Assembly: GCA_043817235.1 (NCBI GenBank)
Contig: JBDRHA010000003.1
Span: 1 to 61,429, forward strand
Direction: 5' to 3'
DNA from: Candidatus Shapirobacteria bacterium
GTDB lineage: Bacteria; Patescibacteriota; Microgenomatia; UBA12405; BS750m-G30
Length of the DNA: 61,429 bases
Each line of letters opens with the position of its first letter. The first letter of the stretch is position 1. The position numbers and the translations under genes are program-made. Below are positions 17,734 to 55,127 of this stretch, one piece after another. The notes beneath the pieces are model-generated. The model saw only the letters and a program-made list of their open reading frames with translations, was not told where the DNA came from and searched no databases.

Positions 17734-17787
17734 ATGTCTTCTATTATATAAACAAATAGTGAAGCGAAAATCAATGGACTAATTACA

Positions 17788-19171: not shown

Positions 19172-19172
19172 T

Positions 19173-19568: not shown

Positions 19569-19576
19569 CTTAGTAG

Positions 19577-19987: not shown

Positions 19988-20003
19988 TTTTGTTTTTTAA
20001 TTT

Positions 20004-20931: not shown

Positions 20932-20935
20932 TCTA

Positions 20936-22959: not shown

Positions 22960-22978
22960 AATAACTTCCTACTGGGTT

Positions 22979-23644: not shown

Positions 23645-23662
23645 TTTTTCACCTCCCTTCTT

Positions 23663-24865: not shown

Positions 24866-25933
24866 TTACTTTCTAAAATATCGGTTTAATTCACTTTTAC
24901 GAATAGCAAAATCCCTAGCCGTTTCCGCCGCAATTTTGTTTTCTTTTACTAACTGTATCAAAGATTTTTCCAGCAAAACCATTCCCGTATCGTTAGAAGT
25001 CTGAATAATATTATCTATCATGTAGCTTTTTCCTTCCCGAATAGCATTCTTAACCGCCGGATTATTAATTAAAATTTCTAAAGCAGGAACGCGCCCGGGC
25101 CGCAATCCAGGAACTAGCCTCTGAGAAATAACCATGCCTAAAACGGCGGCCAGCTGAGAAGTAACCTGCTGTTTTGCCGAACCCGGAAAAACATCAATTA
25201 TTCGGTCTACTGTTTCGGCCGCACTGTTAGTGTGCAGGGTAGAAAAAACCAGATGACCAGTTTCGGCAATGGTTAAAGCGGCGCCAATTGTTTCCAAGTC
25301 CCGCATTTCGCCGATAAAAACCACGTCTGGATCTTGGCGCAAGCTTGAGCGCAAAGCCCGGCTCCAGTCTTTAGTGTCCGCACCAACTTCACGCTGAGAA
25401 ATTATTGACTTATTGGGGCGAAAACGATATTCAATCGGGTCTTCAACGCTAATTATGTGAGCCCGGCGGCTAGAATTAATTTCCTCAAGTAAGCTGGCAA
25501 CCGTAGTTGACTTGCCATGCCCGGTTGGGCCGGTAATCAAAACTAAACCTTGGCGCCAATTTACCACCTGACTTAAAAGCGACGGCAAGCCAAGCTTATT
25601 AAGAGAGGGGACCTCGCCAGCCAAGTAGCGCAAGCTGGCTGATGCCTGCCCTTGCTGAAAGTAAACATTAACTCTAAATTGTCCATCGCTATGGATAAAA
25701 GAAAAGTCCACTTCCTTTTCCTTTAAAAAACGCTCTTTTCTTTGACTCAAAAGCAGCTCTATTAGCCGGCCTAGTCTTTCTTCCTCTATTGCCGGCTCGT
25801 TAGCCAGAGGGTAAAGCTCACCATAAACACGAACGACTGGGGGGTAGCCGGCCACCAAATGCAAGTCTGAGGCCATATTATTAATAGTAAGCTCTAATAA
25901 TTTGTCTAAATAAGCTTTTATATCTTTTTCCAT
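24866..25933 (-). CDS. pilT: Retraction ATPase PilT
   Basis: Walker A GPTGHGKST, Asp box, His box, AVKNAIREGK (PilT AIRNLIREGK-type motif), no N-terminal GSPII domain. Confidence 0.9.
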   Translation of the reverse strand: MEKDIKAYLDKLLELTINNMASDLHLVAGYPPVVRVYGELYPLANEPAIEEERLGRLIELLLSQRKERFLKEKEVDFSFIHSDGQFRVNVYFQQGQASASLRYLAGEVPSLNKLGLPSLLSQVVNWRQGLVLITGPTGHGKSTTVASLLEEINSSRRAHIISVEDPIEYRFRPNKSIISQREVGADTKDWSRALRSSLRQDPDVVFIGEMRDLETIGAALTIAETGHLVFSTLHTNSAAETVDRIIDVFPGSAKQQVTSQLAAVLGMVISQRLVPGLRPGRVPALEILINNPAVKNAIREGKSYMIDNIIQTSNDTGMVLLEKSLIQLVKENKIAAETARDFAIRKSELNRYFRK

Positions 25934-25941
25934 GTTGATCT

Positions 25942-27663
25942 TTAGTACTTAATTACCCGTAATATTTCTTCTAAAGTAGTAATCCCTTCAATTGCTTTTA
26001 AATAACCGTCTTGGCCCATCGTAAGCATGCCGGCCTTCACCGCCGATTTTTGAATTTCGCCACCAGCTGACCTTTGCAAGGTCAGCTTGGCAATTTCGTC
26101 GTTCATTAAAAAAACTTCAAATATTCCCACCCGACCATAATAGCCGGTTTTCCCGCATTCTTCGCACCCTTTGCCCCGATAAAGCTTTATTTCTTTTTGC
26201 CTTGCTTCATCTAAATAAGAACCCAAAACTTTTTTTATACCTTCCGCCACTTCTGGCGGAGGAGCATATTCTTCTTTGCAATGAGTGCAAATTTTTCTTA
26301 CTACCCGCTGAGCAACTATCGCGTTTAAAGAAGAAACCAGCAAAAAAGACTCGGTTTTCATATCCAAAAGCCGGGGAATCGCTCCGGCGGCATCGTTAGT
26401 GTGCAGAGTAGAAAAAACCAGGTGGCCGGTTAGAGCCGCATGCACTGCCAAAGCAGCTGTTTCTTCATCCCGAATTTCGCCAACCATAATAATATCCGGA
26501 TCCTGGCGCAAAAAAGAACGCATGGCCGAAGAGAAAGTCAGCCCGGCCCGAGGATTAACCTGAACCTGATTAACACCCCCAATCTGATACTCTACCGGAT
26601 CTTCGATAGTCATCACGTTTACCTTAGTAGTGCTTATTTTGGAAAGAGCCGAATAAAGAGTAGTTGTTTTTCCGGAACCGGTTGGCCCGCAAACAATAAT
26701 AATCCCGTGCGGACGAGAAATAGCCTCATTAAAATCGCGCAAAGCTTTGCCTCGCAGTCCCAGCTCAGGCAGATCAGGAATTTTTTGGGATTTTTTCAAA
26801 AGCCGCATCACTACCTTTTCCCCGAAAACAGTTGGGGCTGTGGAAACCCGTAGATCTACTTCCTGACTATCGGCAGTAAAATTAAACCGGCCATCCTGAG
26901 GCACCCTTTTCTCGTCAATTTTTAGGTCAGAAAGAATTTTAATCCGAGAAACAACTGCCTCATGAATCCTTTTGGGCAAAAGCAGTTTCTCCTGTAAAAT
27001 TCCGTCTATCCGGTAGCGAACACGAGTTTCGTCTTCTTCCGGCTCAATGTGTACATCCGAAGCCCGAGCTTTCATCGCAAACTCCAAAATAATAGAAACT
27101 ACCTTGGCAATTGGCGCCTCTTTAATAACGTCATCCAGGTGGCCAAGATCCGGGGTTGCTGTTTTATTCTCCGGACTGGTGGACTTAAGCGCTTCAGTAA
27201 CCTCTTCTGTAATTTCCTGAGCATAACCCTGTTTAATCGCATTAGTGATTTGCTCCGGGTCAGCCAAATGAGCAATTACCTTAAGGTCTGTCTTTTTTTC
27301 CAAAAAATCAATTGTTTCCAGGTCTAAAGGATTAGCCATGGCAACTAGCAGAGTTTTTTTTGCCAAGTCAATATCAAAAGGGACCAGGCGATAATGTTCG
27401 GCCAAATTTTTGGGTACTTGTTCAAAACTTTGAGGAGAAAAAGCCGCAGACGAAAGGTCAATAAAGGGCACCTTCCAAAACTCAGCTTTAGCTTTAAGCA
27501 AGTCGGTGATATTCACCCAGCCTTTTTGCTGTAAGATAACTTCTTCTCTTTGTCCACCGCTAAGATGAAGAAGACGCGCTTCCTCCGCTTGTTTTTGATC
27601 AATCAATTGCTTTTGCAAGAGAATCCCAACCAGGTCATCGCTCTTTTCGGGCAGTTTTACCAT
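25942..27663 (-). CDS. pilB: Assembly ATPase PilB (GspE family)
   Basis: N-terminal T2SSE_N domain, Walker A GPTGSGKTT, tetracysteine CTHC...CEECGKTGY. Confidence 0.9.
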   Translation of the reverse strand: MVKLPEKSDDLVGILLQKQLIDQKQAEEARLLHLSGGQREEVILQQKGWVNITDLLKAKAEFWKVPFIDLSSAAFSPQSFEQVPKNLAEHYRLVPFDIDLAKKTLLVAMANPLDLETIDFLEKKTDLKVIAHLADPEQITNAIKQGYAQEITEEVTEALKSTSPENKTATPDLGHLDDVIKEAPIAKVVSIILEFAMKARASDVHIEPEEDETRVRYRIDGILQEKLLLPKRIHEAVVSRIKILSDLKIDEKRVPQDGRFNFTADSQEVDLRVSTAPTVFGEKVVMRLLKKSQKIPDLPELGLRGKALRDFNEAISRPHGIIIVCGPTGSGKTTTLYSALSKISTTKVNVMTIEDPVEYQIGGVNQVQVNPRAGLTFSSAMRSFLRQDPDIIMVGEIRDEETAALAVHAALTGHLVFSTLHTNDAAGAIPRLLDMKTESFLLVSSLNAIVAQRVVRKICTHCKEEYAPPPEVAEGIKKVLGSYLDEARQKEIKLYRGKGCEECGKTGYYGRVGIFEVFLMNDEIAKLTLQRSAGGEIQKSAVKAGMLTMGQDGYLKAIEGITTLEEILRVIKY

Positions 27664-34299: not shown

Positions 34300-34363
34300 C
34301 TCTTCGACTCCCCTGACGTCTATTGCTAGTTTTTGCCAAAATTGTTACGATACTCATAGAACA

Positions 34364-35518
34364 ATGGGAACAACAAAAACTTTAAAGCTTTTAGATAACA
34401 TTCAGTTTATTTATGAACTAGCGTTAGCAAGATTAGAGCTGCAATCTTTTAATCCCGATCTAAGGGTCACCAATGACTTCAGGGAATTTGAGCTAAAAGA
34501 TGATGGGAATTTTGAGACACTCAAAAGAAGGCTCGCATATTTTAAGACGATAAACGGCAGTTACTCCGATTATTACTATCTACAAAAATACAATCAAACC
34601 AAATCAGTCAATCAATATCTAACCCACTGGATTTATCCATATAAGGGCAAATTCCACCCCCAAATGATTAGAGCCTTAATGAATATTATGAAAATCCAAA
34701 GAGGGGAAACATTATTTGATCCATTTGTTGGAAGCGGCACAGCTGTTTTGGAAGCCCAAATTTTGGGGATAAACGCAATAGGATTAGACATCAGCCCGCT
34801 TTGCGTTCTTATCTCAAAAGCAAAAACAGAATCTGTTGGTGTTCTTGATGAAATTAAAAAATATAAAGATTTTTATCTTTTCAAAAAAAGCGGAAAAGAA
34901 GCAAGCGATGAGAAAGTTAGAAATTTTTACAAAGTTGCCGAAATGATGGCCCATAGCGATCAATCAAGAAGAGGTAAAAATTTCCAGTCATCGTTTGTAA
35001 ACGATGCCCTAAAAATGATTGCATCTGTTGAGGATTACAGCAACGCCATTAAAAAGCAAAATTTAAAAATAGGGAAGACAAAAATTATACAGGGCGATAC
35101 TAGAAAAGTAAACCTGAAAGATGATTCTGTAGACGGAATTATTACATCCCCACCATACTCTATTGCTCTAAATTATGTGGCCAATGATGCCCACTCATTA
35201 GAAGCATTGGGTTATGATTTAGACAAGATAAAAGAAGACTTTATCGGAGTCCGTGGAACTGGATTAAATAAATTTGAGCTTTATGATAAAGATATGGAAA
35301 AGGCATATAGTGAAATGTTTAGGGTTTTGAAGAAAGATAAATATTGCGTGATAATCATAGGAAACGTAACATTCCAGGGCAAGGAAATAAATACAGCCCA
35401 GAATGTTATTGACTACTGCGAAAAAATAGGTTTTAAGACTATTAAAAAAATTGAGAAAATAATCTACGGACTTTATAACATTATGCAGAAAGAATATATT
35501 TTAATTTTTCAAAAATAA
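34364..35518 (+). CDS. DNA methyltransferase (N4-cytosine or N6-adenine type)
   Basis: AdoMet motif I FDPFVGSGTAVLEA and catalytic motif IV ITSPPYS about 135 aa apart; AT-rich gene next to a PD-ExK ORF. Confidence 0.7.
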   Translation: MGTTKTLKLLDNIQFIYELALARLELQSFNPDLRVTNDFREFELKDDGNFETLKRRLAYFKTINGSYSDYYYLQKYNQTKSVNQYLTHWIYPYKGKFHPQMIRALMNIMKIQRGETLFDPFVGSGTAVLEAQILGINAIGLDISPLCVLISKAKTESVGVLDEIKKYKDFYLFKKSGKEASDEKVRNFYKVAEMMAHSDQSRRGKNFQSSFVNDALKMIASVEDYSNAIKKQNLKIGKTKIIQGDTRKVNLKDDSVDGIITSPPYSIALNYVANDAHSLEALGYDLDKIKEDFIGVRGTGLNKFELYDKDMEKAYSEMFRVLKKDKYCVIIIGNVTFQGKEINTAQNVIDYCEKIGFKTIKKIEKIIYGLYNIMQKEYILIFQK

Positions 35519-35519
35519 T

Positions 35520-36155
35520 ATGGATAAAAACAACTACATAAAACAATTAGAAGAGACTATCTCGAAATTTATAGAGCCATTAAAAAATATCCCCTTTCCT
35601 GTTGCAGTAAAAGCAATATCTGGCCACGGTGTTTTATCCTTTGATAAAAATAACCCTAAAGATAAAAAATTATTAGGCCGCCTAACAGAAGCAATGGACA
35701 CAGCAATTAAAAATGCTTATGAAAAAGGAATTTCGACGGCCAGACCAAACGAAGTCGGTAATCATATAGAGCCATTCGTTAAAGATGCACTTAATAGCGT
35801 AGGATTAAAAGCCGAAATTCCTTTAACAACAAATGGCAAACACCAAAGCGCGGGCTATCCTGATATCTATATCGAGGATGCTGACCGAAGGAAGATTTAC
35901 TTGGAATGCAAAACCTATAATAAGAAGAGTATTAAATCTTCTTTTAGAGCCTTCTATTTTCAACCTTCCAAAAGCTCTAAAATTACTTGTTCTGCAAAGA
36001 AATGTATAAATCAGAAGCACTATTGGCAGAAGGCGGAATCTAATATCTTGCAAAGGGGAGGGGAGTTGAATAGAATGGGATTGTTATGGCCAAATGAAAG
36101 TTATATACACAAAGCACCTATATCAAAAAATTGCCGAAAGAAAGTTTCCCATTGA
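35520..36155 (+). CDS. Putative type II restriction endonuclease (PD-(D/E)xK), 3' end runs through a 33-bp repeat
   Basis: GYPDIYIED...IYLECKT fits PD...ExK; starts 1 nt after the methyltransferase stop; last ~36 codons cross repeat copy 1 and overlap the next gene by 62 nt. Confidence 0.5.
   Translation: MDKNNYIKQLEETISKFIEPLKNIPFPVAVKAISGHGVLSFDKNNPKDKKLLGRLTEAMDTAIKNAYEKGISTARPNEVGNHIEPFVKDALNSVGLKAEIPLTTNGKHQSAGYPDIYIEDADRRKIYLECKTYNKKSIKSSFRAFYFQPSKSSKITCSAKKCINQKHYWQKAESNILQRGGELNRMGLLWPNESYIHKAPISKNCRKKVSH
36047..36079. repeat. 33-bp direct repeat, copy 1
   Basis: cttgcaaaggggaggggagttgaatagaatggg, identical to 37174-37206. Confidence 0.95.
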
Positions 36156-36381
36156 CTATCCTAAAAAAATTTATTACCGACCCGAAAATAAATTCTATGA
36201 TTCCCAACTAGAGAATAACGTGTCGATTAAAGAAATGTTTTATAACTGTAGAAAAAGGCCAATCCAGTTATCGTGGGTATATGACAAAGATTCTCGATGT
36301 GTTAAAATGATTACAATTATGCCAGTTAGGCCTAGAAATCTGGCTAATAGAATAAAAACTGGAAGATGGGTTCCAAGATGA
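36094..36381 (+). CDS. DUF4258-like small protein (putative toxin)
   Basis: MKVIYTKHLYQKIAERKFP resembles the DUF4258 N-terminus (xxTxHaxxRmxeRxi) from memory; 95 aa. Confidence 0.5.
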   Translation: MKVIYTKHLYQKIAERKFPIDYPKKIYYRPENKFYDSQLENNVSIKEMFYNCRKRPIQLSWVYDKDSRCVKMITIMPVRPRNLANRIKTGRWVPR

Positions 36382-36698
36382 AAATAAGCAATAAATCAAT
36401 AAAAAAAGCAAAAAGATATTATGACCCCGACAGTGATGTGCTTTGGATTATCACAAAAAGCGGTGAAGTAGAGGCTGTGGAAGAATTATCACCAGGGATA
36501 AATATTGAATTTGATAAAAATGGTTTATTGCTCGGAATTGAGGTTCTTAATTACTCCAAGCAGAAACAATTTGTTGATTATTCATTTAAAGCCATAAAGG
36601 TTAAGGATAGCTCAAGAGAGTTGAGTATTTTTCCTGATAAATATCGCAGTCCCATTGTCAGGGCTAATAATCCTTCTTCCTATTTCTCTAGCCTATGA
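36378..36698 (+). CDS. DUF2283-like small protein (putative antitoxin)
   Basis: YYDPDSDVLWI...FDKNGLLLGIEVLNYSK matches the DUF2283 pattern from memory; ATGA overlap with the upstream gene. Confidence 0.5.
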   Translation: MKISNKSIKKAKRYYDPDSDVLWIITKSGEVEAVEELSPGINIEFDKNGLLLGIEVLNYSKQKQFVDYSFKAIKVKDSSRELSIFPDKYRSPIVRANNPSSYFSSL

Positions 36699-37153
36699 TT
36701 AAACACATCTGGTCAGTGATCTGCCAAAAGTCTTTAATAGATAAGGAAACTAATAATATAAGCTTAATTGAGGTTCTTGAAGAAGTTTCGGTAAATATCA
36801 CTTCTCCTGGTGAAATTAATAAAAAGATCAACATTCCTTTTAAATATGAAGTAGTAAATTATTGGATGAAAAAGGGAAGAGTGAAAGACGTAGATATCAG
36901 GATACGCCTTGTTGATCCCGATCAAAAAGTAATAAAGAGCTTCATTAACAGGCTATCCATTCCACCGGACAAGGACAGAATGAGATCTCGATTAAGAATA
37001 TTAGGTTTAGAATTAACCCGGTCAGGAAGCTATACTTTCTGGATAGAAATCAAAGAAGAAGGTAAAAAAACCTTCAAGCGAGTTGCCGAACTTCCTCTTG
37101 AAGTAAAACTAACTAAAAAAGCATTGCCGCTTGATCCACAAAAACTCAATTAA
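36695..37153 (+). CDS. Hypothetical 152-aa protein, third gene of the coupled cassette
   Basis: ATGA overlap with the upstream gene; no recognised motif. Confidence 0.6.
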   Translation: MIKHIWSVICQKSLIDKETNNISLIEVLEEVSVNITSPGEINKKINIPFKYEVVNYWMKKGRVKDVDIRIRLVDPDQKVIKSFINRLSIPPDKDRMRSRLRILGLELTRSGSYTFWIEIKEEGKKTFKRVAELPLEVKLTKKALPLDPQKLN

Positions 37154-37173
37154 CTCTTTGCTAGCTAAAAAAC

Positions 37174-37206
37174 CTTGCAAAGGGGAGGGGAGTTGAATAG
37201 AATGGG
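37174..37206. repeat. 33-bp direct repeat, copy 2
   Basis: Identical to 36047-36079; ends 3 nt before the MFS start codon; contains SD-like GGAGGGGAG. Confidence 0.95.
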
Positions 37207-37209
37207 CAT

Positions 37210-40828: not shown

Positions 40829-41381
40829 CGGCTATTCCTCCAACTAAAAAAGCATAAGCTAACCAATAAATTTTCAGCCAAGAAACAGGAAGATGCAAGG
40901 AGGCTAAGGGAGAGCGGGCAAAAAGCCAATTTCTTAAGTGATTAGGATCTGCTTTTAGATCTTCACGTATATCTACTAATAAATGCAAATCAAGAGCCAA
41001 AACTAAACCTTTGCCAAAAACATTACTCGTTGAGGTAAAAATAAAAAAGGTTAAAACTAAAAGCAGAACCTGAAAAATAAAATGATGAAAAACAAGAGAA
41101 ACATGATTTTTGTGATTTGCTTCAAGATGTTTAAGCAATCCCTTCCAATTCTTTTTTTGCCACAATTCTCTTGCTATTTTTGATTCTTCAAAATCAGGTT
41201 TTAGAAAGAACCAGTAAATCAGGTGATCTGCGTCTAATAAAAAGGTACCAATAATTAAACCCGAAGCAAAAATAAAAGCCTTTAAAATAGAAAAACTACC
41301 GGTAAAAAGCCAGATTATTTCGAGCAAAACAAAAGCCGCCAAACTAGCAATTAAATGACTATATACTTCTTTTTTAATCAC
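40812..41381 (-). CDS. Polytopic membrane protein, His-rich (possible membrane-bound metal hydrolase)
   Basis: 5-6 TM segments; LLDADHLIYW, HKNHVSLVFHHF. Confidence 0.4.
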   Translation of the reverse strand: MIKKEVYSHLIASLAAFVLLEIIWLFTGSFSILKAFIFASGLIIGTFLLDADHLIYWFFLKPDFEESKIARELWQKKNWKGLLKHLEANHKNHVSLVFHHFIFQVLLLVLTFFIFTSTSNVFGKGLVLALDLHLLVDIREDLKADPNHLRNWLFARSPLASLHLPVSWLKIYWLAYAFLVGGIAGAFIR

Positions 41382-42505
41382 AATATCTTTTCCAAAAAGT
41401 CTAAAGATTTTTTCACTTCCGGTTTTTGAAAATGCTCTCGGGCTGGAGCCAGTTTCTTAATTAACCAATCAGCCACCGCTTTTTTCAAGTCCTGCGGGTG
41501 AAGCTCGCCCTCTTTGTAGTCTTGTATCAATGTATCGATACATCGATACATTTTGTCGCCGCCGAACTTGGCCGGCCGCTTTATTTTAAGCTCACCTTCA
41601 TTTTGCCCCCAGAAAACCAAATACTGGACCCAATTAATAACCGGGTTAAATTCAACTTCCCTGGGCGGACAGTAAGCTTTATTTATTTTCTCTTCAATAA
41701 TTTTTGGTAAATCGTGAACAAAAATAGCCGAATTAGGTTTAGACTTGCTCATCTTCAAGCTAATCTCCAAATCTTGCCTGTCTTTTTTTAATTCATCTTT
41801 TTTCGGTCCTTCAAGGCCAGCAATAGTATTCTGATGAATAGCTGCCGGCGCGATAACCTCTCCTGATTTATTCTTTATTGGATTAATAGTCAGTTTCTTA
41901 GCTACTGATCGGGCCACCACATGGGCCTTGCGTTGATCAATCCCCGCATGAGCCAAATTCACTCCTAAAGTAAAAATATCCGCTACTTGAAGCGGGGGAT
42001 AGAAAAGAGTGGCCATATTTACTTCCTTGCCCTGCTTTTTACCCATAATAGAAATAGAGCGCAAATTGCGGGCCAAAGTAACGTGCTGGCCGATTTCCAT
42101 AAAAGTCTCCCAGTGAATTAAATTATTAGCATAAAGCTCTTTGCCGGTGACAAATTGAACTTGCTCTTTTTTGACCCCAAAGCACATTAAAGAAGCAATC
42201 AAGGCATTTTTAAAATAGCCCTCAGTGGCAATTCTAATATTTTCCCAATTGCCGCCCAGCTTATTATTTAAATATGAATGAAAATCCGCCAAAAAAATAG
42301 TACACTCCGCTCCGGCTTGAAGAAAGTCGGCAGTTTTCCCCATCGACATTAATCCCGTGCCCAAATGAACTTTGCCAGAAATCTCAAAGCCAATATAGTG
42401 TTTTAAAGGAGTTTTGGAAATTATTAATTCTTCTAGATCTTCTTTAGTTAAAACCTCTTCGCAGTTGCGAGTAATTAAATCAATTTTTTTCGCCGTATCC
42501 ATCAA
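41378..42505 (-). CDS. tyrS: Tyrosyl-tRNA synthetase, archaeal/eukaryotic type
   Basis: HYIGFEISGKVHLGTG (HIGH region), KMSKSKP, NKAYCPP, ELHPQDLKKAVADWLIKKLAPAREHF; collinear with my memory of M. jannaschii TyrRS. Confidence 0.85.
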   Translation of the reverse strand: MMDTAKKIDLITRNCEEVLTKEDLEELIISKTPLKHYIGFEISGKVHLGTGLMSMGKTADFLQAGAECTIFLADFHSYLNNKLGGNWENIRIATEGYFKNALIASLMCFGVKKEQVQFVTGKELYANNLIHWETFMEIGQHVTLARNLRSISIMGKKQGKEVNMATLFYPPLQVADIFTLGVNLAHAGIDQRKAHVVARSVAKKLTINPIKNKSGEVIAPAAIHQNTIAGLEGPKKDELKKDRQDLEISLKMSKSKPNSAIFVHDLPKIIEEKINKAYCPPREVEFNPVINWVQYLVFWGQNEGELKIKRPAKFGGDKMYRCIDTLIQDYKEGELHPQDLKKAVADWLIKKLAPAREHFQKPEVKKSLDFLEKIL

Positions 42506-42671
42506 AATCTATTCTAGCAGGGGTTGCCCGGCAAGACAAGCAATAAGAATATACATTACCCCCAGGACTGGCTATATTTGTCAAGCTAATTGTAAAGGTT
42601 ATTGTAAGACCAAAGAACTGTTTCGTGCCTAAGTTTGTCAAGTTTAGGCATAAGCTGTCAAAACTAGCTTT

Positions 42672-42719
42672 GTCCAAAGCCACAGACAGAGTTAGAACCT
42701 TTTATGGGAAAATTATATC
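42672..42719. repeat. Cassette-associated repeat, copy A
   Basis: gtccaaagccacagacagagttagaaccttttatgggaaaattatatc; aligns with copies B and C; overlaps the stop of the hydrolase gene. Confidence 0.8.
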
Positions 42720-43762
42720 TTTAAGTACTTATCGAAAAATTCAACTGAACGTTTTAGAGCTAAGGTGAGGTTGTTTGATAAATTATGATTATCGTTTTCG
42801 TAAACAAAAAGCTCTACTGGTTTATTAGCTTTTTTCAAAGCTTGCTCCAGTTCCTGGCTAAAAAGCAAGGGCACTTCAGCATCAGCGGTTCCGTGCTGGA
42901 GCTGAATTGGGCCGGAAATATCAGAAACAAAAGAAATAGGAGAAATTGATTGCCAAAATTGAGGATTTTGCTCAAAATCGCCGTATTGATCAATTAATTC
43001 CTGTCTGCCCGGCCGCTGAGCCGCCTGTTCTCTTTGTGAGGGAACCCAGGGTTGGGGATTGTGAACCGGATGATGCCAGTTTTTAGCTAAATCTTCGTAG
43101 GAAGCAACCACTCCCGCCCAAACTTCACCCACTTTAATGTCCTTGGTTACTGCCATTGATCTTAAGGTAATCATCCCTCCCATGGAATGACCCCACATTC
43201 CGATCTTTTCAGGATTAACTTCTTCGAAATTCTTTAAAGAAGAAACCGCATTTAAAACATCAATTGTATAAGCAGAAGAATAATAGGCTCCTTCTGGCTT
43301 ACCCTCAGAATTACCGTGCCCCCGAAAATCAGGCTTAAAAACAATATATCCGTTTTTAGAAAAAGCGTCAGTATAGGCAAGGTATTTTTCCGTAGTACGG
43401 TATTGTTCGGGCTGAATATAACCATGGTTAAAAACAATAGCCGGCCAACCCCCCTCTGGTTTTTCTCCTAAGGGCACTGTCAGCAAAGCATAGATTTTTA
43501 AACCATCTGACCTATATGAGACAAGATAGCGATTGTAATTTGAACCAGGAGGAAGAGTTTGTTCAATCACAATTTCACTCCCCGGATATTCTTGCTGTCT
43601 CATGTATTCTATTGAAAGGGGAATCGGCTCATCAATTAGTCCACCCTGATCTTGCAAATCTATGGGGCTGAAAAGGTTTTTTGATGATCTATTTTTACCA
43701 ACAACAATACCCCCTAGTATAAAAACGGCCAAAATGGAAATGATAAAAATGCGCTTAATCAC
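42713..43762 (-). CDS. Membrane-anchored alpha/beta hydrolase (S9 peptidase / dienelactone hydrolase-like)
   Basis: GHSMGG nucleophile elbow, HGTADAEVP, N-terminal TM helix. Confidence 0.7.
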   Translation of the reverse strand: MIKRIFIISILAVFILGGIVVGKNRSSKNLFSPIDLQDQGGLIDEPIPLSIEYMRQQEYPGSEIVIEQTLPPGSNYNRYLVSYRSDGLKIYALLTVPLGEKPEGGWPAIVFNHGYIQPEQYRTTEKYLAYTDAFSKNGYIVFKPDFRGHGNSEGKPEGAYYSSAYTIDVLNAVSSLKNFEEVNPEKIGMWGHSMGGMITLRSMAVTKDIKVGEVWAGVVASYEDLAKNWHHPVHNPQPWVPSQREQAAQRPGRQELIDQYGDFEQNPQFWQSISPISFVSDISGPIQLQHGTADAEVPLLFSQELEQALKKANKPVELFVYENDNHNLSNNLTLALKRSVEFFDKYLKI

Positions 43763-43865
43763 TTATCCTAAAAAAGCATTGTATCAGATTACTCTGACAA
43801 AACTTAATTCCCCTTATAAATAATACAAAGAAAAGAGCAAATTAATTTCAACTATGCAAGCCGCA

Positions 43866-43915
43866 GTCCAGAGCCACGGAGAAAGTTCGAGCCTTTTTCA
43901 GAAGAAATTATATGC
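43866..43915. repeat. Cassette-associated repeat, copy B
   Basis: gtccagagccacggagaaagttcgagcctttttcagaagaaattatatgc. Confidence 0.8.
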
Positions 43916-43966
43916 TCTTTAAACCTAGCTATTCTACTTCTCTTGCCTTTGAAAAAATAGTCTCTG

Positions 43967-44359
43967 CTATATTTTAGTAATGATAAAATAACTAGCTAGA
44001 GAAACTGAGGCTCCTAAGACTGTTCCCCAAACTATGTCTACAATTGTGACAATCAGCGGCCAGTCTTTAATCGTAGCAAGATTTGTCAAATCATAGGTAG
44101 CATAAGAAATAAGTCCAAGTAAGGCTCCCAAAAAAAGGGCTTGGGTCCAAGAGTTTTTCTCCAAGGCTGGTAAAACCGAAAAAACTACCAACCCAACTAC
44201 AAAGAGTAAGTAAAATAAACCAGCGGCTGCAAAATTAACATTTGTCTTCATTAAATAGCCTAGGTATTTAGCATAAAAATTTTTGGCAATTAAAGTAAGC
44301 CAAACAAAATCAATTGCTAAAAAAACCGGCAGGGTAATTAAATAGGCTTTAATAAACAT
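43967..44359 (-). CDS. DUF2177-like small membrane protein
   Basis: Four TM segments; MFIKAYLITLPVFLAIDFVWLTLIAKNFY start resembles DUF2177 from memory. Confidence 0.5.
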   Translation of the reverse strand: MFIKAYLITLPVFLAIDFVWLTLIAKNFYAKYLGYLMKTNVNFAAAGLFYLLFVVGLVVFSVLPALEKNSWTQALFLGALLGLISYATYDLTNLATIKDWPLIVTIVDIVWGTVLGASVSLASYFIITKI

Positions 44360-44360
44360 C

Positions 44361-44756
44361 TTAACGATTTAAATAAGTAATGGTTAATTGTAATACAGTT
44401 GCAAAGCTAACCCACAATAAATAGGGGATTTGTATAAAGGCAATCCATTTATGATGGGGATAAATAGCAACCATTGCCCAAATAAGGGTGACCAAGACGA
44501 GAAGGATGTCAATTGCCGCTAGTAAATTATTTCTTAATCCAAATTGCAGGGGAGTAAAGGCAAAGTTAAAAACAAGATTAAGGATAAATGGGAGCGCAAT
44601 CAAAAAAGAAATTCGCTTCTGAAAGGTTAATTGAAATACCTTGAAAAAGGAAATTGCAATCAAAACATAAAGAAAAGTCCAAACTGGACCGAAAAGCCAA
44701 GATGGTGGTGACCATGAGGGCCTAACCAGTTGTTGATACCAATTACTACTCTCCAT
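44361..44756 (-). CDS. tspO: TspO/MBR family tryptophan-rich sensory protein
   Basis: WYQQLVRPSWSPPSWLFGPVWTFLY, five TM segments. Confidence 0.75.
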   Translation of the reverse strand: MESSNWYQQLVRPSWSPPSWLFGPVWTFLYVLIAISFFKVFQLTFQKRISFLIALPFILNLVFNFAFTPLQFGLRNNLLAAIDILLVLVTLIWAMVAIYPHHKWIAFIQIPYLLWVSFATVLQLTITYLNR

Positions 44757-44847
44757 TGTATTAACTATAACAGATATTTAAAATCCATTCTACAAAGGAG
44801 AAAACGACTTATTCAAATAAACTAAAAGAAATTCATAGAAAACCTGA

Positions 44848-44898
44848 GTCCAGAACTACGGACAGAGTTCGAACCCTTTTTAGGGGAAAATTATATCC
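44848..44898. repeat. Cassette-associated repeat, copy C
   Basis: gtccagaactacggacagagttcgaaccctttttaggggaaaattatatcc; left flank 44828-44844 matches 45518-45534 (16/17). Confidence 0.8.
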
Positions 44899-44924
44899 TC
44901 GAAAACAAAAATACTTACCTAAAT

Positions 44925-45446
44925 TTATAAATACCTTTTTGAAGAGTAAATAGTATTTTGATTATTTTGCCTGTTGGCCACCAGAATGAAGTCAAAAAAA
45001 ACCATTTTTTTTACTTTTTCTAATTCTTTCATTGCTTTTTCCTGGTTTTCTTTAGAAACAAACCAAACTACTTTCGTATAGTAAGTGGCTATCACTCCTT
45101 TTGAAAAAAAATGAGAAGCTAGCTTTCTTATTTTTTCTGTTTGTTTAAGGTCAAATGACAAGGCTAGATGTTTTTCATCCTTAACAGTCACTCCCGAAGT
45201 TTTAATCTTAAAAGGAAGATAAGGCTTTAATTCTCTTAGCAGGTCCAAATAATTAGGCATTTCCCCAACCGGAACATCATTATTAATAACTAAAGATAAA
45301 TGATTAAAAATGCCATTAGCGTCACTATTTTTCGGTCTTTTACTAAACTTTGATTCTAATTTAGCAAAATACTTTTCTTGCTCCGGCTTCAGTCTTCCAA
45401 AAATGCCCAGAGCGTTAATAGTATTTGAGGTTGAAGAAAGTGCCAT
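44925..45446 (-). CDS. Hypothetical 173-aa protein (weak 2H-phosphoesterase-like HxS)
   Basis: Clean ORF; only NHLSLV reminiscent of an HxS/T motif, no second motif. Confidence 0.5.
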   Translation of the reverse strand: MALSSTSNTINALGIFGRLKPEQEKYFAKLESKFSKRPKNSDANGIFNHLSLVINNDVPVGEMPNYLDLLRELKPYLPFKIKTSGVTVKDEKHLALSFDLKQTEKIRKLASHFFSKGVIATYYTKVVWFVSKENQEKAMKELEKVKKMVFFDFILVANRQNNQNTIYSSKRYL

Positions 45447-45535
45447 GGCTTATTCTACCAAAAAACTCTCTCCATCTTTTAATTCTATCAAAAAATAGCC
45501 TATTTAATAAATTAGAAGAAATCCATAGAAAACCG

Positions 45536-45555
45536 TAGTCCAGGGGGTAAGATTC
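45536..45555. repeat. Duplicate of the tRNA-Tyr 3' end (copy D, att-like)
   Basis: tagtccagggggtaagattc, 20/20 identical to 45861-45880, which covers the last 17 nt of tRNA-Tyr plus 3 nt of trailer. Confidence 0.9.
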
Positions 45556-45559
45556 CCAA

Positions 45560-45858
45560 CTTCGCTAAAGCTTCGTAGGGCAAGCCAGTTAAACGAAAAA
45601 TCTCTTGCGCATAAAGGCAATACCTGATCCAGATTTCAGATATCTCTCAAACGAAACCGCTTGCTCCCTTGTTCTGAAAACACAATACCACTTTAATTTA
45701 TAATTTAAATTTGATTTTGTACTTTTTACTTCACCAGAAAAGTGTTTATTTAAACGATTTTTCAAGTCTTTTGTCGAACCAATGTAATATCTTCCAGTTT
45801 TCGAGTTTTTTAGTATATAAGTATAAAACATGGCCTGCTATCTGTAGCTTTAGCGAAA
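45560..45858 (-). mobile_element. 0.3-kb mini-element carrying only a GIY-YIG gene, bounded by 13-bp inverted repeats
   Basis: cttcgctaaagct (45560-45572) and its reverse complement agctttagcgaag (45846-45858) flank ORF 45589-45831; outside them lies the 20-nt duplication of the tRNA-Tyr end. Confidence 0.45.
45589..45831 (-). CDS. GIY-YIG (URI-domain) nuclease family protein, 80 aa
   Basis: FYTYILKNSKTGRYYIGSTKDLKNRLNKH = GIY...YIG...R...N signature. Confidence 0.85.
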   Translation of the reverse strand: MFYTYILKNSKTGRYYIGSTKDLKNRLNKHFSGEVKSTKSNLNYKLKWYCVFRTREQAVSFERYLKSGSGIAFMRKRFFV

Positions 45859-45863
45859 GATAG

Positions 45864-45947
45864 TCCAGGGGGTAAGATTCGAACCTACGTAGGGATAATC
45901 CCGCGGGTTTTACAGACCCGTGCGTTTGACCACTCCGCCACCCCTGG
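45864..45947 (-). tRNA. tRNA-Tyr (anticodon GTA), C1:G72, long variable arm, CCA not encoded
   Basis: Hand-folded on minus strand: acceptor ccagggg/cccctgg, D stem gcg/cgc, anticodon stem cgggt/acccg, loop ctGTAaa, 15-nt variable arm (ggga-tta-tccc), T arm gtagg-ttcgaat-cttac, discriminator A. Confidence 0.85.
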
Positions 45948-46104: not shown

Positions 46105-46665
46105 CTATATATAGTATATTTTCAATAATCGGCTCTTTTTATCTTCTTTTAAGAGAGTTGCATATTCTTTGTTGCTTTTTTTATTAAGCTTTTGCACTTC
46201 AAGAATCGCCTTTACTATTTCTTTTTTATCCTTGGTTTTTATTTTTACTTTAAATTTCTTTTCAAAATTTTCTAAATTAGCTAGTTCTCCTAAAACCAGG
46301 GTAGAGAAGAGGGGAGTGATAAAATTTTTAATAGCGATTATAAGGTTTGAATGATACTCGGCAAGGGCACCGTCAACTCCTAATTCTTTTTTAAATTCAT
46401 CCAAAAAATCAGTTGCTTTTTTATCTTTCTTAAAGATAGCATTAGATATTCGGGAGGTGAGATAATCATAAAGCCCGTTCCAATAGTATTGAGCATAGGC
46501 AAAATACAAAAGTTTTTCCCGATTATCTTTGGAAAGCTTGAGCATTTCCTTAACTCTGGGATTATTTTTTTTCTTTTTGGGATTTTTAAAACAAGCAACT
46601 AGATCCTGGGCTAGGGCAGCATCATTATAAGCATTTAGAAAGTAAAGATAGGGCTTGGGTCTCAT
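46105..46665 (-). CDS. Hypothetical 186-aa protein
   Basis: 4-nt overlap with the upstream Nudix gene; Lys-rich; no motif recognised. Confidence 0.55.
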   Translation of the reverse strand: MRPKPYLYFLNAYNDAALAQDLVACFKNPKKKKNNPRVKEMLKLSKDNREKLLYFAYAQYYWNGLYDYLTSRISNAIFKKDKKATDFLDEFKKELGVDGALAEYHSNLIIAIKNFITPLFSTLVLGELANLENFEKKFKVKIKTKDKKEIVKAILEVQKLNKKSNKEYATLLKEDKKSRLLKIYYI

Positions 46666-50577: not shown

Positions 50578-53223
50578 ATGAAAAAAGAAAAAACTATTTT
50601 ACAAGAGAACGAAAAAAATACGAGAAAAGGCAGAATCAGAACTGTTGGAATTGTGCCCGAGATGGAAAAGTCCTATTTAGACTACGCGATGAGCGTTATT
50701 GTGCAACGGGCTTTGCCCGAGGTGCGCGACGGGCTTAAGCCAGTTCACCGCCGGATCTTATATGCCATGCACCAGATGGGCTTAACTTATGGCTCCAGGC
50801 ACTCCAAGTCCGCCAAAATTGTCGGAGAGGTTTTGGGAAAATATCACCCTCATGGAGATATGGCCGTCTACGAATCTTTGGTCAGAATGGCCCAAAATTT
50901 TTCTTTGCGCTACCCATTAATTGATGGCCAAGGAAATTTTGGCTCCATTGATAATGATCCCCAAGCAGCTATGCGCTACACCGAAGCCCGAATGGCTAAA
51001 ATCAGCGCCGAAATGCTATCAGATATTAAAAAAGAAACTGTAGAATTCACTCCTAATTTTGATAATAGCTTAGACGAACCACTGGTGCTGCCTACTAAGT
51101 TGCCTAACCTCCTTTTAAACGGAGGCGATGGCATTGCTGTAGGCATGGCCACCAAAATTCCACCTCATAATTTGGAAGAAGTAGTCAGTGCCTGCATTGC
51201 CGTCTTAGAAGCAGGAAAACTGGAAAAACAGGAAGCTGAAGAAGAAAGCACAGAATTCCAAAAAATTGATCTCGTTCCCCAGGACGAAAAAGAAATAATC
51301 TTTAAAGAGGTTACTAAGCTTGAAAAAGAAAGGCTTGAATTTGAAACAGAGAGAACTTCTCAAGAATTACTAAAATATATTAAGGGCCCGGATTTTCCTA
51401 CCGGCGGCCAAATCTTTGACAAAGAGGCAATTTCCGAGATTTACACTACTGGCCGAGGCAAAGTCATTATTCGGGGAAAGGCAGAAATAGAAGAAGCTAA
51501 AGGAGGAAAATTTCAAATTATTATTTCGGAAGTTCCTTACCAAGTCAACAAAGCCCAAATGGTCGCTAAAATCGCTGATTTAGCTAAGGAAAAAAAGATT
51601 GTGGGAATTGCCGACCTTCGTGATGAATCTGACCAGAGAGGGATTCGGGTTGTGGTTGAGCTAAGAAAAACCTCCATGCCCAGATCTGTTTTAAACAAAC
51701 TCTATAAACTGACTCCTTTGCAAACCAGCTATCCGGCTAATGTTGTCGCTTTAGTTGACGGAATTCCTCAAACCTTAAATTTGCGCCAAATTTTGCTTCT
51801 CTTTATTCGCCACCGCCACCAAGTAATTCGGCGGCGAACTATTTTTGACCTTAAAGAAGCCAAGCTGCGCTCCCATATCCTGGAAGGATTAAAAATTGCT
51901 CTAGATAATCTAGATGCGGTCATTGAAACTATTAAAAAATCTAAAGATTCGGAAGCAGCCAAGATTAATTTGATGGAAAAGTTTAAATTAACTTCACTCC
52001 AGGCAACAGCTATTCTAGACATGCAGCTTCGCCGTTTAGCGGCCTTGGAAAGGCAGAAAATTGAAGACGAATATCAAGAAATTAAAAAATTTATGGACCT
52101 GCTTATCGCCATTCTAACCAAGCCTGAAAAAATGCTCGGGGTAATCAAAGACGAATTGCAACAGATCAAGGAAAAATATAAAGACAAAAGACGAACTAAA
52201 GTATTCTCCCAAAAAATAGGGAATTTTTCTGAAGAGGATCTAATACCAGACAAAAAAACAATTATAACCATTACTAAAACCGGCTATGTTAAGAGACTGC
52301 CGCCTTCCACTTTCCGCAGCCAGAGAAGGGGAGGGAAAGGAATAATGGGCATGACTAAAAAAGAAGAAGATGAAATTGAGCACTTTCTTTTTGCTCAAAC
52401 CCATGATGAAATTTTCTTTTTTACGGACAAGGGCAGGGTTTTCAAGCTCAGAGTTTGGGATATTCCCGAAGGGTCACGCCAGTCTAAAGGGCAGGCAATT
52501 ATTAACTTGATTAACATTGAGCAAAAGGAAAAAGTTCAAGCTGTTTTAACCGCAAAAAAGGACACCAAGGGTTACATTGCCATTGTCACCAAAAACGGAC
52601 AGATTAAAAAAACTGACTTAAAAAAGTTTGACAATATCCGAGTTTCGGGAATTATTGCTATCAGCTTAAAAAGCAATGACCAGGTGGTGGATGTCAAGCT
52701 TACGCAAGGAAATGATCAAATATTTATCGTCACTCAAAGCGGGAAATGCATTCGTTTTCCCGAAAGAGACGTTCGGCCCATGGGCCGGGATGTTCAGGGC
52801 GTAAAGGGAATTTCCTTAAAGGATCGCGACAAAGTAATTACCATGGACATTATCCCTGAAAAACTTCCTGAGCCGGAAGACAAGCGAAAAAAAGTTTACC
52901 GACACCTGTTGGTGGTGATGGAAAACGGAATCGGAAAAAGAACAGATGTTTATGATTATCCCTTGCAAAAGAGGGGCGGGGTGGGAGTAAAAGTAGCAAA
53001 CATTACGGCAAAAACCGGCCAGGTTTCCTGCGCCAAAGTAATTTCGGAAAAAGATGCCCAAGCAGTTTTAACTTCACGGCAAGCACAAGTTATTAAGCTT
53101 CCGATTAAAAATATTCCGGTTCTTTCTCGGGCTACCCAAGGAGTTATTTTAATGAGGCTAAAAAAAGAAAAAGGCAAAACAACCGATAAGCTGGCAGACA
53201 TCACTTGTTTAAAGAAAGCCTAA
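50578..53223 (+). CDS. gyrA: DNA gyrase subunit A
   Basis: [30 protein letters not shown], catalytic AMRYTE, GyrA-box QRRGGKG, beta-pinwheel repeats. Confidence 0.97.
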
Positions 53224-54203
53224 GATTTTTTATTCCCGCTGTGATATTTGTCGTGAATTTCTTTTAGCCTTTTGTCTGTTACGTGAGTATAAATCTGGGT
53301 AGTGACAATGCTTTGGTGGCCCAAAAGTTCTTGCACTGATCTTAGGTCCGCCCCGGACGAAAGCAGATCAGTGGCAAAACTATGACGCAAAACATGAGGT
53401 GTCACTCTTATTACTAATCCCGCCTTTCTTTGATACTTCTTAACCATTCTTTGAATGGAGCGCACTGATAATCGCAAAACTTCACCCTTGGTGCTCGGGT
53501 CGCTTTTTTTGCCTGAATAGCGAATAAATAAAGGCTGGTAGTGGTCATTACGAGCAACCAAATAGCGATCCAGCCATTTTTTGGCCCTGTGAGAAATAAA
53601 TATTACCCTTTGGCGCCCACCTTTTCCAATCACGCCTACCTCGCGAGAATCTAAGTTAATTTGATCACGGTTAAGACCAACCAGCTCGGAAACCCGCAGT
53701 CCTGAGGAAAAAAGAAGCTCTAAAACAGCTTTGTCTCTTAAGCCAATGATCGTAGAAATCGTAGGCTGGCCAAGCAGTCTTTCTGCCTCTTTAGCACTCA
53801 AAAACTTAACCCCGCTTTTTTCTCCCCGAGGAAGCTCAATTTTATCGGGCGAAAGGGCCTCGTAGTCATTTTTAATGAGCCACCGCAAAAAAGACCTTAA
53901 GGCAACAATATAATATCCTTGTGTTTTCTTTTTTAAATAAGTGCCCTTCTTTGTTTTTTTATTACTAAGCAGTTTCCTAAACTGGCGAATATTTGGCCCA
54001 TTAAGGTCCAATAGGGTAGGGGACTTATTCTTTTTAGAAACGAAATCTAAAAAACTAATTAAATACTGGTGGTAATTGCGAATCGTCAGGGGAGAGCGGT
54101 TTTTTTCAATTTCTAAATATTCTAAAAAATTAAAAATTAATTTAGACAAATCGTTATTCTCGGTCATCTTCAATAGCATAATCTTATTATTTTCTTTTGT
54201 CAA
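53220..54203 (-). CDS. Tyrosine recombinase, XerC/XerD family
   Basis: RLSVRS...[39 protein letters not shown] (R-H-R-Y catalytic set); ORF opens with TTG; ATGs at 54179 and 54167 are alternative starts. Confidence 0.9.
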
Positions 54204-55127
54204 GATTGTGCGACGTTATAGTTATTTGACTTCTCGCCTGCCGCCTTCTTCAATAAATATTAAATATTTAATTAATGTATTTATTCTCTTTTTACTTATG
54301 AAAATAACTCAGGCAATCTAGACAAGCTTAAAAGCAAAAGTAAAAAAACAAAAAGATAAAAAATAAGAAGCATTTACTCAAAACCAAAATATTTAAGTTT
54401 TTTAAAGAGGCAATAAGATACTGGTTCGTCTAAAAAAAGGGCTCTGGCGGGCGCTAAAAAAGAGGCTTATTCTGAAAAAAAAGGTCTGTTTTTAAAATGG
54501 GGGAAGAGCTAGAATTTTAGCTTAAAACAAAAAATAACAAAACAACTTAATAAAACAACAGTCTGATTTTAAATTATATAACTAATTATTTTCTTAATAA
54601 ATAAAAATTAAAATTAAAATTATAAACATTCAAAAAAAGCACTTCTTTACTCCTTTGCTTTTCCTCCTGTTCGTAAAAGATATATTGTGCGTCATTATTA
54701 AAAGGGAAACAATCTCGTAAGGGGAAGCAAATTTATCTAAAATACTTTTTCTTTTCCCTTTTTTTAGTGTTCTACTCAACAATTTAATAAGCCTAAGTCA
54801 GTTTTAAACTCCTTCCCCTTTAAGCAGTCAAGCAAGAATGCAAGAGAGCCATAATATACTTTTCCACAACTAATAGCTAAGAAAGAGATATTAGTATCAA
54901 ACTATATCAAATTTATCTGTTTATATTTTCCCTATCTATAGGAGAGATATTTAGATAAAGAGCTATCTAGCACTCTAGTTATATATTTGCTAATAATCTG
55001 CTAACCGTGAAAATAACCCCATAGTAATAGTGAAAAGGTCTATGGGTTATAGGACTTAAGCATATTGCTATAGGATATTAGCCTCTTCCCTCTCCCCTGT
55101 TTTGACCTTGACCTAAGTTTCTTATAG

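Follow-up and report, generated by a model that had tools for sequence, protein, structure and literature searches.

The interval between the tRNA-Tyr gene and tyrS in a Candidatus Shapirobacteria genome (contig JBDRHA010000003.1; the whole 61,429-nucleotide (nt) stretch that we analysed is called the window) is, on balance, probably an array of small mobile cassettes, inserted, exchanged and lost by recombination at a short core derived from the end of tRNA-Tyr. Read along the minus strand, the order is tRNA-Tyr (45947..45864), a GIY-YIG open reading frame (ORF; 45831..45589), a short copy of the tRNA end called D (45555..45536), an ORF for a protein of 173 amino acids (aa), site C, the genes for TspO and a DUF2177 protein, site B, an alpha/beta hydrolase gene, site A and tyrS. 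The initial annotation of this DNA, whose quoted sequences and coordinates are all present in the window, had seen the repeats and offered two explanations: repeated insertion at the tRNA end, leaving a decaying series of old ends (D, C, B, A), or integron-like capture of cassettes at a tRNA-derived site. The second proved the better fit, in a form whose sites are not attC-like and which has no integron integrase.

The argument starts from the sites. A (42672–42719), B (43866–43915) and C (44848–44898) had been taken for copies of one repeat, and they do form a single family: they are the sole matches to their consensus in the 61,429 bases at up to three mismatches, with hidden Markov model (HMM) E-values of 5e-16 to 3e-18, and 100 shuffles gave no match. 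On the gene strand they read TATAATTTTC..CTAAAAAGG-GTTCGAAC-TCTGTCCGTGGyyCTGGAC. The left arm of a site is about 50 nt long, starts at the last stop codon of the cassette or within about 50 nt of it, carries the blocks TATAATTT(T)C, GTTC[G/T]AAC and TCTGT, and ends in the core (C)CTGGAC. The right arm begins with a conserved leader of about 40 nt and leads into a promoter-like -10 box for the next gene; boxes of the type TGnTAnAAT stand near each start codon, as read from the sequence. The features of the array, from the tRNA-proximal cassette to tyrS, are as follows.

45447..45535, minus strand: right arm ahead of the 173-aa cassette, with a conserved leader of about 42 nt (TACGGTTTTCTATGGATTTCTTCT...) and an extended -10 box
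45452-45460, minus strand: the extended -10 box TGGTAGAAT, within that right arm
44925..45446, minus strand: cassette gene for the 173-aa protein of unknown function; no Pfam or NCBIfam match
44848..44898, minus strand: site C (left arm and core), GGATATAATTTTCCCCTAAAAAGGGTTCGAACTCTGTCCGTAGTTCTGGAC; family HMM E = 3e-18
44757..44847, minus strand: right arm of site C, with promoter-like boxes for TspO (TTGAAT-18-TAGAAT, and TACAAT)
43967..44756, minus strand: two-gene cassette, TspO at 44361-44756 (Pfam E = 2.8e-33) and DUF2177 at 43967-44359 (Pfam E = 1.5e-45)
43866..43915, minus strand: site B (left arm and core); family HMM E = 2e-17
43763..43865, minus strand: right arm of site B, diverged, from sequence reading and alignment
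43778-43786, minus strand: -10 box TGATACAAT for the hydrolase gene, in the right arm of site B
42713..43762, minus strand: cassette gene for an alpha/beta hydrolase (S9/S33-like, Pfam) of 349 aa, secreted or membrane-anchored
42672..42721, minus strand: site A, the terminal site, overlapping the hydrolase stop codon; family HMM E = 5e-16
42575..42653, minus strand: conserved chromosomal region rich in TTGACA and TTACAAT motifs, 79 nt at 87% identity to L023:1072-1150
41378..42505, minus strand: tyrS, for an archaeal-type class I tyrosyl-tRNA synthetase (TyrRS; Pfam PF00579, E = 6e-41), the conserved downstream anchor

The gene calls made earlier (TyrRS, alpha/beta hydrolase, DUF2177, TspO and the 173-aa unknown, all on the minus strand) stood, and the window TyrRS is 64–79% identical to proteins of Candidatus Shapirobacteria metagenome-assembled genomes (MAGs). 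The long spacers were borne out in part: those of the array measure 207, 204, 168 and 142 nt against a median gap of 5 nt in the window, but four other gaps in the window reach at least 210 nt. The GC content is 0.32–0.36 at about 43.5–47 kb, covering the TspO/DUF2177 and 173-aa cassettes, against 0.38–0.47 in the flanks, and about 0.38–0.42 in the hydrolase cassette. A search of 1.84 billion proteins found just 27 representative homologues of the 173-aa protein. By its GC content and by the rarity of the 173-aa family, the cargo looks like accessory genes. Exact look-ups of four window proteins returned no record.

The family is not confined to this genome. Across 530 kb of loci fetched for comparison from bacteria of the candidate phyla radiation (CPR; these loci carry L-numbers below), the HMM matched three sites in the window, two in L023 and three of a long type in a Candidatus Roizmanbacteria locus, all co-oriented, so that the family spans two CPR classes. 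These matches lie only in arrays. A generic terminator or repetitive extragenic palindrome (REP) family, which the initial annotation had named as the finding that would tell against insertion, was therefore not seen, and we rejected a REP-like or intrinsic-terminator class for A–C, which have no hairpin and whose copies occur only in arrays.

The sites A–C are 69–76% identical to one another within the window and likewise 69–76% in comparisons between genomes; over all pairs within and between the window and L023 genomes the range is 69–80%. This equality within and between genomes shows that the sites are old and maintained. A–C and the L023 and Roizmanbacteria copies also have in common blocks that the tRNA lacks: a TATAAT motif (perfect in four of the five Shapirobacteria sites), extra bases between T-loop and core, and a common right arm. 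At 10 of 12 site junctions there is a T-run, at a distance of 4–8 nt from GGAC. By these comparisons A–C are old, maintained sites and not independent decay products of the tRNA. The decaying series D, C, B, A does not fit these derived features or the equal identity between genomes, and D has a different origin, in a GIY-YIG element described below.

The link to tRNA-Tyr is clearest at the core. The last bases of the window tRNA-Tyr, CCCCTGGA plus C, are the proposed insertion core; the terminus CTGGAC is found in all four Shapirobacteria copies of tRNA-Tyr examined, and the sites end in TGGAC, mostly after C, with L023_2 (TGGAT) as the single exception. Beyond the core, the echo of the tRNA end reported earlier is strong in one copy and near chance in the window copies taken singly. 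In L023_1 (L023:314-373), 24 of 26 aligned tRNA-Tyr bases match with two gaps (5 gap positions), none of 2000 shuffles reaches the score, and tRNA-Tyr ranks top among 17 tRNAs. For A, B and C, the observed score was reached in 362, 48 and 75 of 2000 shuffle trials respectively, the similarity being mostly the generic T-loop GGTTCGAA. As direct repeats of the 3' part of the tRNA, the sites match in the core and the T-loop block, yet they form a diverged family of their own. An extension of the similarity leftward into the variable arm did not raise the local alignment score and was dropped.

Relatives show different contents at the same place. In L003 tRNA-Tyr lies 54 nt upstream of tyrS, and the ancestral adjacency of the two that the initial annotation had supposed is seen there. 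In two other Shapirobacteria, three paralogous genes of about 320–650 aa adjoin tRNA-Tyr (L010:5965-10000 and L013:2852-6624); those of L010 stand between tRNA-Tyr and tyrS, and no site repeats accompany them. In L024, L026 and L039, Fic, AbiE or ABC genes lie upstream of tyrS. L023, whose TyrRS is 76% identical to that of the window, has two sites and, between them, different cargo: an NTPase gene and a partial gene for a phosphoenolpyruvate (PEP)-utilising enzyme. One of its sites has the right flank of C and D, and the right arm of the 173-aa cassette includes 32 bases that are 97% identical to L023:356-387. The other stands where A stands, beside the conserved TTGACA/TTACAAT region, and A is the positional orthologue of this site (L023:951-1007). 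The comparisons agree with the earlier claim of insertion in this interval and point to an insertion hotspot between tRNA-Tyr and tyrS.

At the far end, the region rich in TTGACA and TTACAAT motifs also occurs in L024, L026 and L039 and in relatives precedes a Fic gene and then tyrS; it therefore marks the fixed end of the array (42575..42653). The gene order downstream of tyrS is common to the window and L023–L026. In L023, L024 and L026 a Fic/MarR-like gene lies between this region and tyrS, and in L039 Fic and tyrS are further separated by two ABC-2 membrane genes. The Fic gene has been lost from the window (42506–42660), where an apparent start ATGTATA is left. An inverted copy of the tRNA end at 42557–42570 (13 of 14 bases), within the apparent remnant of the deleted Fic promoter and start codon, was rejected as probable chance.

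Variation between strains was seen in the Candidatus Roizmanbacteria locus (L027–L032, six assemblies of one species), which was reached by chance through a GIY-YIG homologue. Within 8.3 kb, L028 has seven members of this family, all in one orientation; some are long (..GTTCTAACGTCTGTTACGAGCCTGGAC) and some short (TAATAATTTCCTACATATTCAACCAGCCTGGAC). Those examined for their position adjoin or overlap the stop codon of the gene upstream. Behind several of them comes a right arm of about 85 nt, with a TGATATAAT-type promoter at its end, close before the next gene's start codon. What the cassettes carry is typical of accessory DNA: an MNT/HepT toxin-antitoxin pair, a zeta-like kinase, a methyltransferase, a DUF2283 protein, an S26 peptidase and a hydrolase.

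The six assemblies are 99.8–99.96% identical over their shared part. L030 and L031 match L028 at 99.8–99.9% only from L028:1577 onward; upstream of this position they carry the C-terminus of an IS30-family transposase where L028 carries a hydrolase cassette. The transposase gene is a C-terminal fragment of 110 aa (NCBIfam NF033563, E = 2.8e-34, 119 bits against a cut-off of 80), and no IS30-family transposase was found in the window or any other locus. Within the left arm the two types differ by five mismatches at 1582–1593, followed by 16 identical nt (TTCAACCAGCCTGGAC) and then only 3–6 mismatches in 6.7 kb. The strain breakpoint maps to the core, within the 16-nt stretch that has the core CCTGGAC at its end, and the same swap junction is present in two independent assemblies. 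The comparison of relatives for presence or absence of cassettes, which had been proposed as a check, thus shows a polymorphism at a site boundary (L030/L031 versus L028). Outside the swapped region L028 and L031 differ by six mismatches, and three of these (L028:4939, 4971 and 5339) lie in cassette sites, a class of sequence that covers about 6% of the total; this is a hint of recombination or mutation hotspots at the sites.

L028 also has junctions of a hybrid kind. It carries a GIY-YIG element at 3917–4355 and a solo left hairpin of such an element at 6958–6990. At one junction the left arm and core of a site are joined directly to the left hairpin of the GIY-YIG element, and at the right end of the element a right arm is joined to a retained fragment like a tRNA 3' end. 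Most simply read, the element would have been the first to arrive at the tRNA end, and the cassettes would have entered later, at the core, between tRNA and element. Such entry between the two would place the growth of the array at its tRNA-proximal end.

The corresponding element in the window fills the interval between D and the tRNA with an 80-aa ORF (45589–45831) that the initial annotation had omitted. Its parts, with the tRNA on one side and D on the other, are:

45864..45947, minus strand: tRNA-Tyr (GTA), by ARAGORN; Rfam RF00005, 56.7 bits
45556..45863, minus strand: GIY-YIG mini-element, directly after the tRNA discriminator base; Pfam GIY-YIG E = 6.7e-17
45838-45863, minus strand: left hairpin of the element, CTATCT..AGATAG
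45589-45831, minus strand: GIY-YIG ORF (80 aa); Pfam PF01541, E = 6.7e-17
45555-45580, minus strand: right hairpin of the element
45536..45555, minus strand: copy D, repeating 20 nt of the tRNA-Tyr 3' end (middle of the T-loop through discriminator, plus CTA), 20/20 identity

The 27-nt arms that flank the ORF are 78% complementary. Homologues at 70–80% identity are common in CPR genomes; one starts 32 nt after tRNA-Glu(CTC) in L033, and another 52 nt after tRNA-Lys(TTT) in L034–L037. At all three tRNAs, tRNA-Tyr of the window included, CTATCTTTCGCTAAAGCTACAGATAG stands directly after the discriminator base, and the left end of the element always begins right after ...GGA or ...CA. A second hairpin follows the gene, and then comes a copy of that tRNA's own end (19/19 in L033, 17/18 in L034), so that 17–20 nt of the tRNA end are duplicated in all three cases with an intact tRNA. 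Compensatory substitutions occur in both hairpin stems, with the two sides changed in two of six pairs (left) and in four of six (right); in the right stem 93% of cells are paired, against 43–57% with the partner columns slid, and the loops of the two hairpins are complementary to each other. The protein, of 80–100 aa, is a catalytic domain without a DNA-binding domain, and its residues Y3, Y5, Y16, G18, R26, H30 and E62 are invariant in 20 homologues. These comparisons indicate a hairpin-ended mini-element of 308 bp that inserts exactly at the 3' end of tRNA genes.

D itself was correctly described as identical to the tRNA end over 20 of 20 bases (45536–45555 versus 45861–45880), and the flank that it had been said to share with C extends to 38 nt at 87% identity (44816–44853 versus 45506–45543). 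D joins the left side of the tRNA to a right arm of the site type and is thus a hybrid junction. The same element ends and own-tRNA duplicates at tRNA-Glu and tRNA-Lys argue that D is the target duplication of the mini-element, that is, the displaced original tRNA terminus, still joined to the right arm of a cassette. Before the mini-element inserted, tRNA-Tyr ran straight into the sequence now after D, and the formation of D is a separate event and a later one.

Some further features of these elements were observed. In longer homologues of 90–100 aa (L033:1500-1545, L034:4255-4285), an inverted repetition of the left hairpin codes for the C-terminal tail ..VALAKD..; this segment is missing from the window element (45589–45600), whose protein stops at 80 aa. 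Immediately 3' of tRNA-Tyr in L013 (7223–7275) stand two tandem copies of the 30-nt left hairpin and no GIY-YIG gene; this may be a solitary remnant of the element, or else a tRNA trailer element of separate origin. The left hairpin had no match in viral contigs, and we found nothing relevant in the literature on GIY-YIG proteins with tRNA genes in CPR bacteria.

The following mechanism would account for these observations. The array would have grown from the 3' end of tRNA-Tyr towards tyrS. Each cassette would comprise a right arm (a leader of about 40 nt with its own -10 promoter), one or two ORFs, and a left arm of about 50 nt ending in the core, and recombination at the core would insert, remove or swap cassettes. 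In a free cassette the left and right arms would be joined together, and would recombine with the tRNA end, which would play the part of attI, or with any resident site, the sites between cassettes playing that of attC. We infer that this recombination is site-specific, that growth runs in the direction given, and that the enzyme is encoded outside the array and acts in trans. Candidate enzymes are an IS30-family DDE transposase, the Xer-type tyrosine recombinase of the window (53220–54203) and, less likely, the GIY-YIG nuclease. At D, the 308-bp GIY-YIG mini-element would have entered later, after the tRNA discriminator base, duplicating the last 17–20 nt of the tRNA.

Several observations weigh against an array of mobile cassettes. 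There are no recombinase genes at 41.3–47.2 kb, and the only recombinase in the 61 kb is the Xer-type gene, which lies 7 kb from the array and scores 112.6 bits against TIGR02249 (cut-off 265); the initial annotation had likewise seen no recombinase in the array and this gene as the nearest. It matches the XerC, XerD and XerA models. The lineage of the window was compared at the level of genus, the strain-level evidence coming from a different class, and the site family is known from three genomic contexts, one of them met by chance. Two DNA scans of a metagenome collection gave no match to the site pattern, and there is no anchoring tRNA within the fetched 8.3 kb of the Roizmanbacteria array. 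The window sites are old, to judge by their mutual identity, and this array may no longer be active. Finally, homologous recombination between conserved sites after DNA uptake would yield the same junctions. Viral contigs likewise had no match to the site pattern; a looser scan of them gave two matches, both inside coding sequence and apparently due to chance.

In the first alternative, no dedicated recombinase exists and the conserved sites serve as portable homology for natural transformation followed by RecA-dependent or homology-facilitated exchange, as with the 'minimal mobile elements' of Neisseria. The window does contain a type IV pilus and competence-like cluster (15459–27663: PilM, pseudopilins, a prepilin peptidase and a T2SSF platform protein), the arms are conserved over 50–130 nt, and no recombinase is linked to the array. 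However, the Roizmanbacteria breakpoint lies in a 16-nt identical stretch beside a divergent left arm, which is short for RecA, in two lineages the hybrid junctions fall exactly at the core, and the start of the array at the tRNA end is left unexplained. We consider exchange by homology unlikely.

A little less likely again is the serial integration of integrase-bearing islands at the 3' end of tRNA-Tyr, with later deletion of the integrases and most of the island DNA, so that A–C would be decaying relics. That the sites end in the tRNA-Tyr terminus, with L023_1 matching so many tRNA bases, and that tRNA-Tyr adjoins tyrS in L003 would suit this history, and tycheposons are a documented case of tandem accretion in which partial tRNAs lie scattered (bioRxiv 10.1101/2020.12.28.424599). 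Independent decay could not, however, have produced the derived blocks that the sites share, nor does it fit site identities that are equal within and between genomes. The cassettes of the window, L023 and L028 contain no integrase or integrase fragment, and they are compact, with the site at most about 50 nt from the stop codon and the promoter just before the next start.

The sites might also be cis-regulatory modules shared by co-regulated accessory genes: a factor-dependent terminator, a promoter with leader, or a very small transcription unit, made up of TATAAT, about 40 nt and a T-run, that gives an RNA like the 3' half of tRNA-Tyr. The TATAAT motifs, the T-runs after GGAC and the -10 boxes of the right arms are what such modules would show, and the conservation of the terminal site between genera suggests selection. 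Against this, the TATAAT has neither a -35 box nor a TG extension, and A–C have no stable or covarying RNA hairpin: gene-strand RNA folds have z-scores of -0.3 to +0.6, RNAalifold found 5 pairs with zero compensatory changes, no terminator was called on the gene strand of the sites, and Rfam gave no match even at E up to 1. With no structure on either strand, we rejected a terminator or structured-RNA reading of A–C. The sites are absent from all other gene ends in the 61 kb, and regulation leaves the cassette swap at the core unexplained, which makes it less likely still.

Least probable of all, to our mind, is that the GIY-YIG nuclease drives the array by cutting after tRNA-like 3' ends, cassette sites included, with homing-type break repair spreading the cassettes: the element or its solo hairpin does occur in both arrays seen at length (the window and L028), its left end is precisely placed and its catalytic residues are conserved, but at tRNA-Glu and tRNA-Lys these elements have no array near them, the small protein lacks a DNA-binding domain, and the cassette ends are unlike the hairpin ends of the element.

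The cassette array can be compared with several known systems. Like integrons, it has co-oriented cassettes of one or two genes with a site just 3' of each coding region, a fixed entry site at one end, to which newer cassettes would lie nearest, and cargo rich in toxin-antitoxin genes and genes of unknown function, whose content differs between close strains (L030/L031 versus L028; the window versus L023). Unlike them, it has no adjacent integron integrase gene (intI), its sites are conserved in sequence and lack the imperfect-palindrome fold of attC, each cassette has its own predicted promoter in place of a common Pc, and cassettes would enter at a tRNA gene's 3' end. Folded as DNA, whole sites had z-scores of -0.2 to +0.6 on both strands, the exception being an idiosyncratic pairing in B, and attC-like single-strand folding was rejected. 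The system would work like an integron but is not one: it has no intI, no attC fold and a predicted promoter for each cassette.

IS30-family elements are said to form circular intermediates and to target their own inverted repeats, giving head-to-tail tandems (Olasz and Kiss). An IS30-family gene does occupy a Roizmanbacteria cassette slot and the units here also stand head to tail, but cassette ends are not inverted repeats of each other and the window has no IS30 gene. Inverted repeats between left and right arms were absent from all 7 sites, and terminal inverted repeats of the insertion-sequence type were rejected for the cassettes. Xer-dependent modules (pdif modules and IMEX) resemble the cassettes in being small, without a recombinase of their own and potentially movable in trans by the host Xer, one of which the window encodes. 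They differ in that no dif-like inverted binding arms are visible here, the sites are direct repeats and the Xer gene is not tied to the array.

Among published systems, the nearest parallel to accretion at tRNA genes is that of the tycheposons of Prochlorococcus (bioRxiv 10.1101/2020.12.28.424599). They share with the proposed array insertion at a tRNA gene, with newer elements pushing older ones inward, repeats that match part of a tRNA between units, cargo-only units and streamlined genomes. Tycheposons are, however, multi-kilobase elements with their own tyrosine or serine recombinase and true partial tRNAs as repeats, whereas the units here are about 1 kb long, lack a recombinase and have a diverged but conserved site with a promoter-bearing arm. 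The GIY-YIG mini-element, for its part, recalls free-standing homing endonucleases of the I-TevI type in its GIY-YIG catalytic domain, where Y, Y, R, H and E are conserved, and in its one precise position at conserved RNA genes. It differs in its size (80–100 aa), in having no DNA-binding domain and no intron, and in its two covarying hairpins with complementary loops and its 17–20-nt target duplication, which homing does not make. In the searchable literature we found no account of this site family or of the GIY-YIG element, and nothing relevant on cassettes or integrons in Patescibacteria.

Elsewhere in the window, about 2.9 kb directly 3' of tRNA-Ala(CGC) (34301–37209) holds an N6/N4 DNA methylase gene and ORFs of 211, 110 (DUF2283-like by eye) and 152 aa. 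In L023–L025 tRNA-Ala directly adjoins a major facilitator superfamily (MFS) gene, and the window region looks like a second hotspot of insertion at a tRNA 3' end. No duplicate of the tRNA-Ala end was found bounding this island; the T-loop string TTCGACTCCC recurs right after tRNA-Ala (34303–34312). Beside the Xer-type gene, 924 nt of AT-rich sequence without ORFs or an Rfam match (54204–55127) could be a replication-related region or a decayed gene. Just upstream of tRNA-Tyr, a 186-aa ORF (46105–46665) has no homologue among 5.8 billion clustered proteins and was dropped as an anchor for comparison. Low GC content (0.32–0.34) spans this ORF and a Nudix gene, so that the region 5' of the tRNA, too, may vary.

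The genomes of CPR bacteria are tiny, few mobile elements have been recognised in them, and little is understood of the ways in which their accessory genes are acquired and exchanged. Tentatively, as a possibility rather than a probability, we propose that the array in the window belongs to a hitherto undescribed gene-capture platform of the Microgenomates CPR, with the tRNA-Tyr 3' end as entry site, sequence-conserved, promoter-bearing sites of about 100–150 bp, freely exchangeable cassettes and, working in trans, a recombinase that may be an IS30-family transposase borne on a cassette, and that in these same genomes a new class of GIY-YIG-only, hairpin-ended mini-elements inserts exactly at mature tRNA 3' ends. 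The mini-element would be a separate lead, a nuclease-only element aimed at the exact 3' end of different tRNA genes. As the sites are short and conserved in sequence, arrays should be findable by a simple model search across thousands of MAGs. If the cassette array is what it appears to be, it would provide a compact route of gene flux in CPR bacteria and a second, independent solution to the problem that integrons solve.

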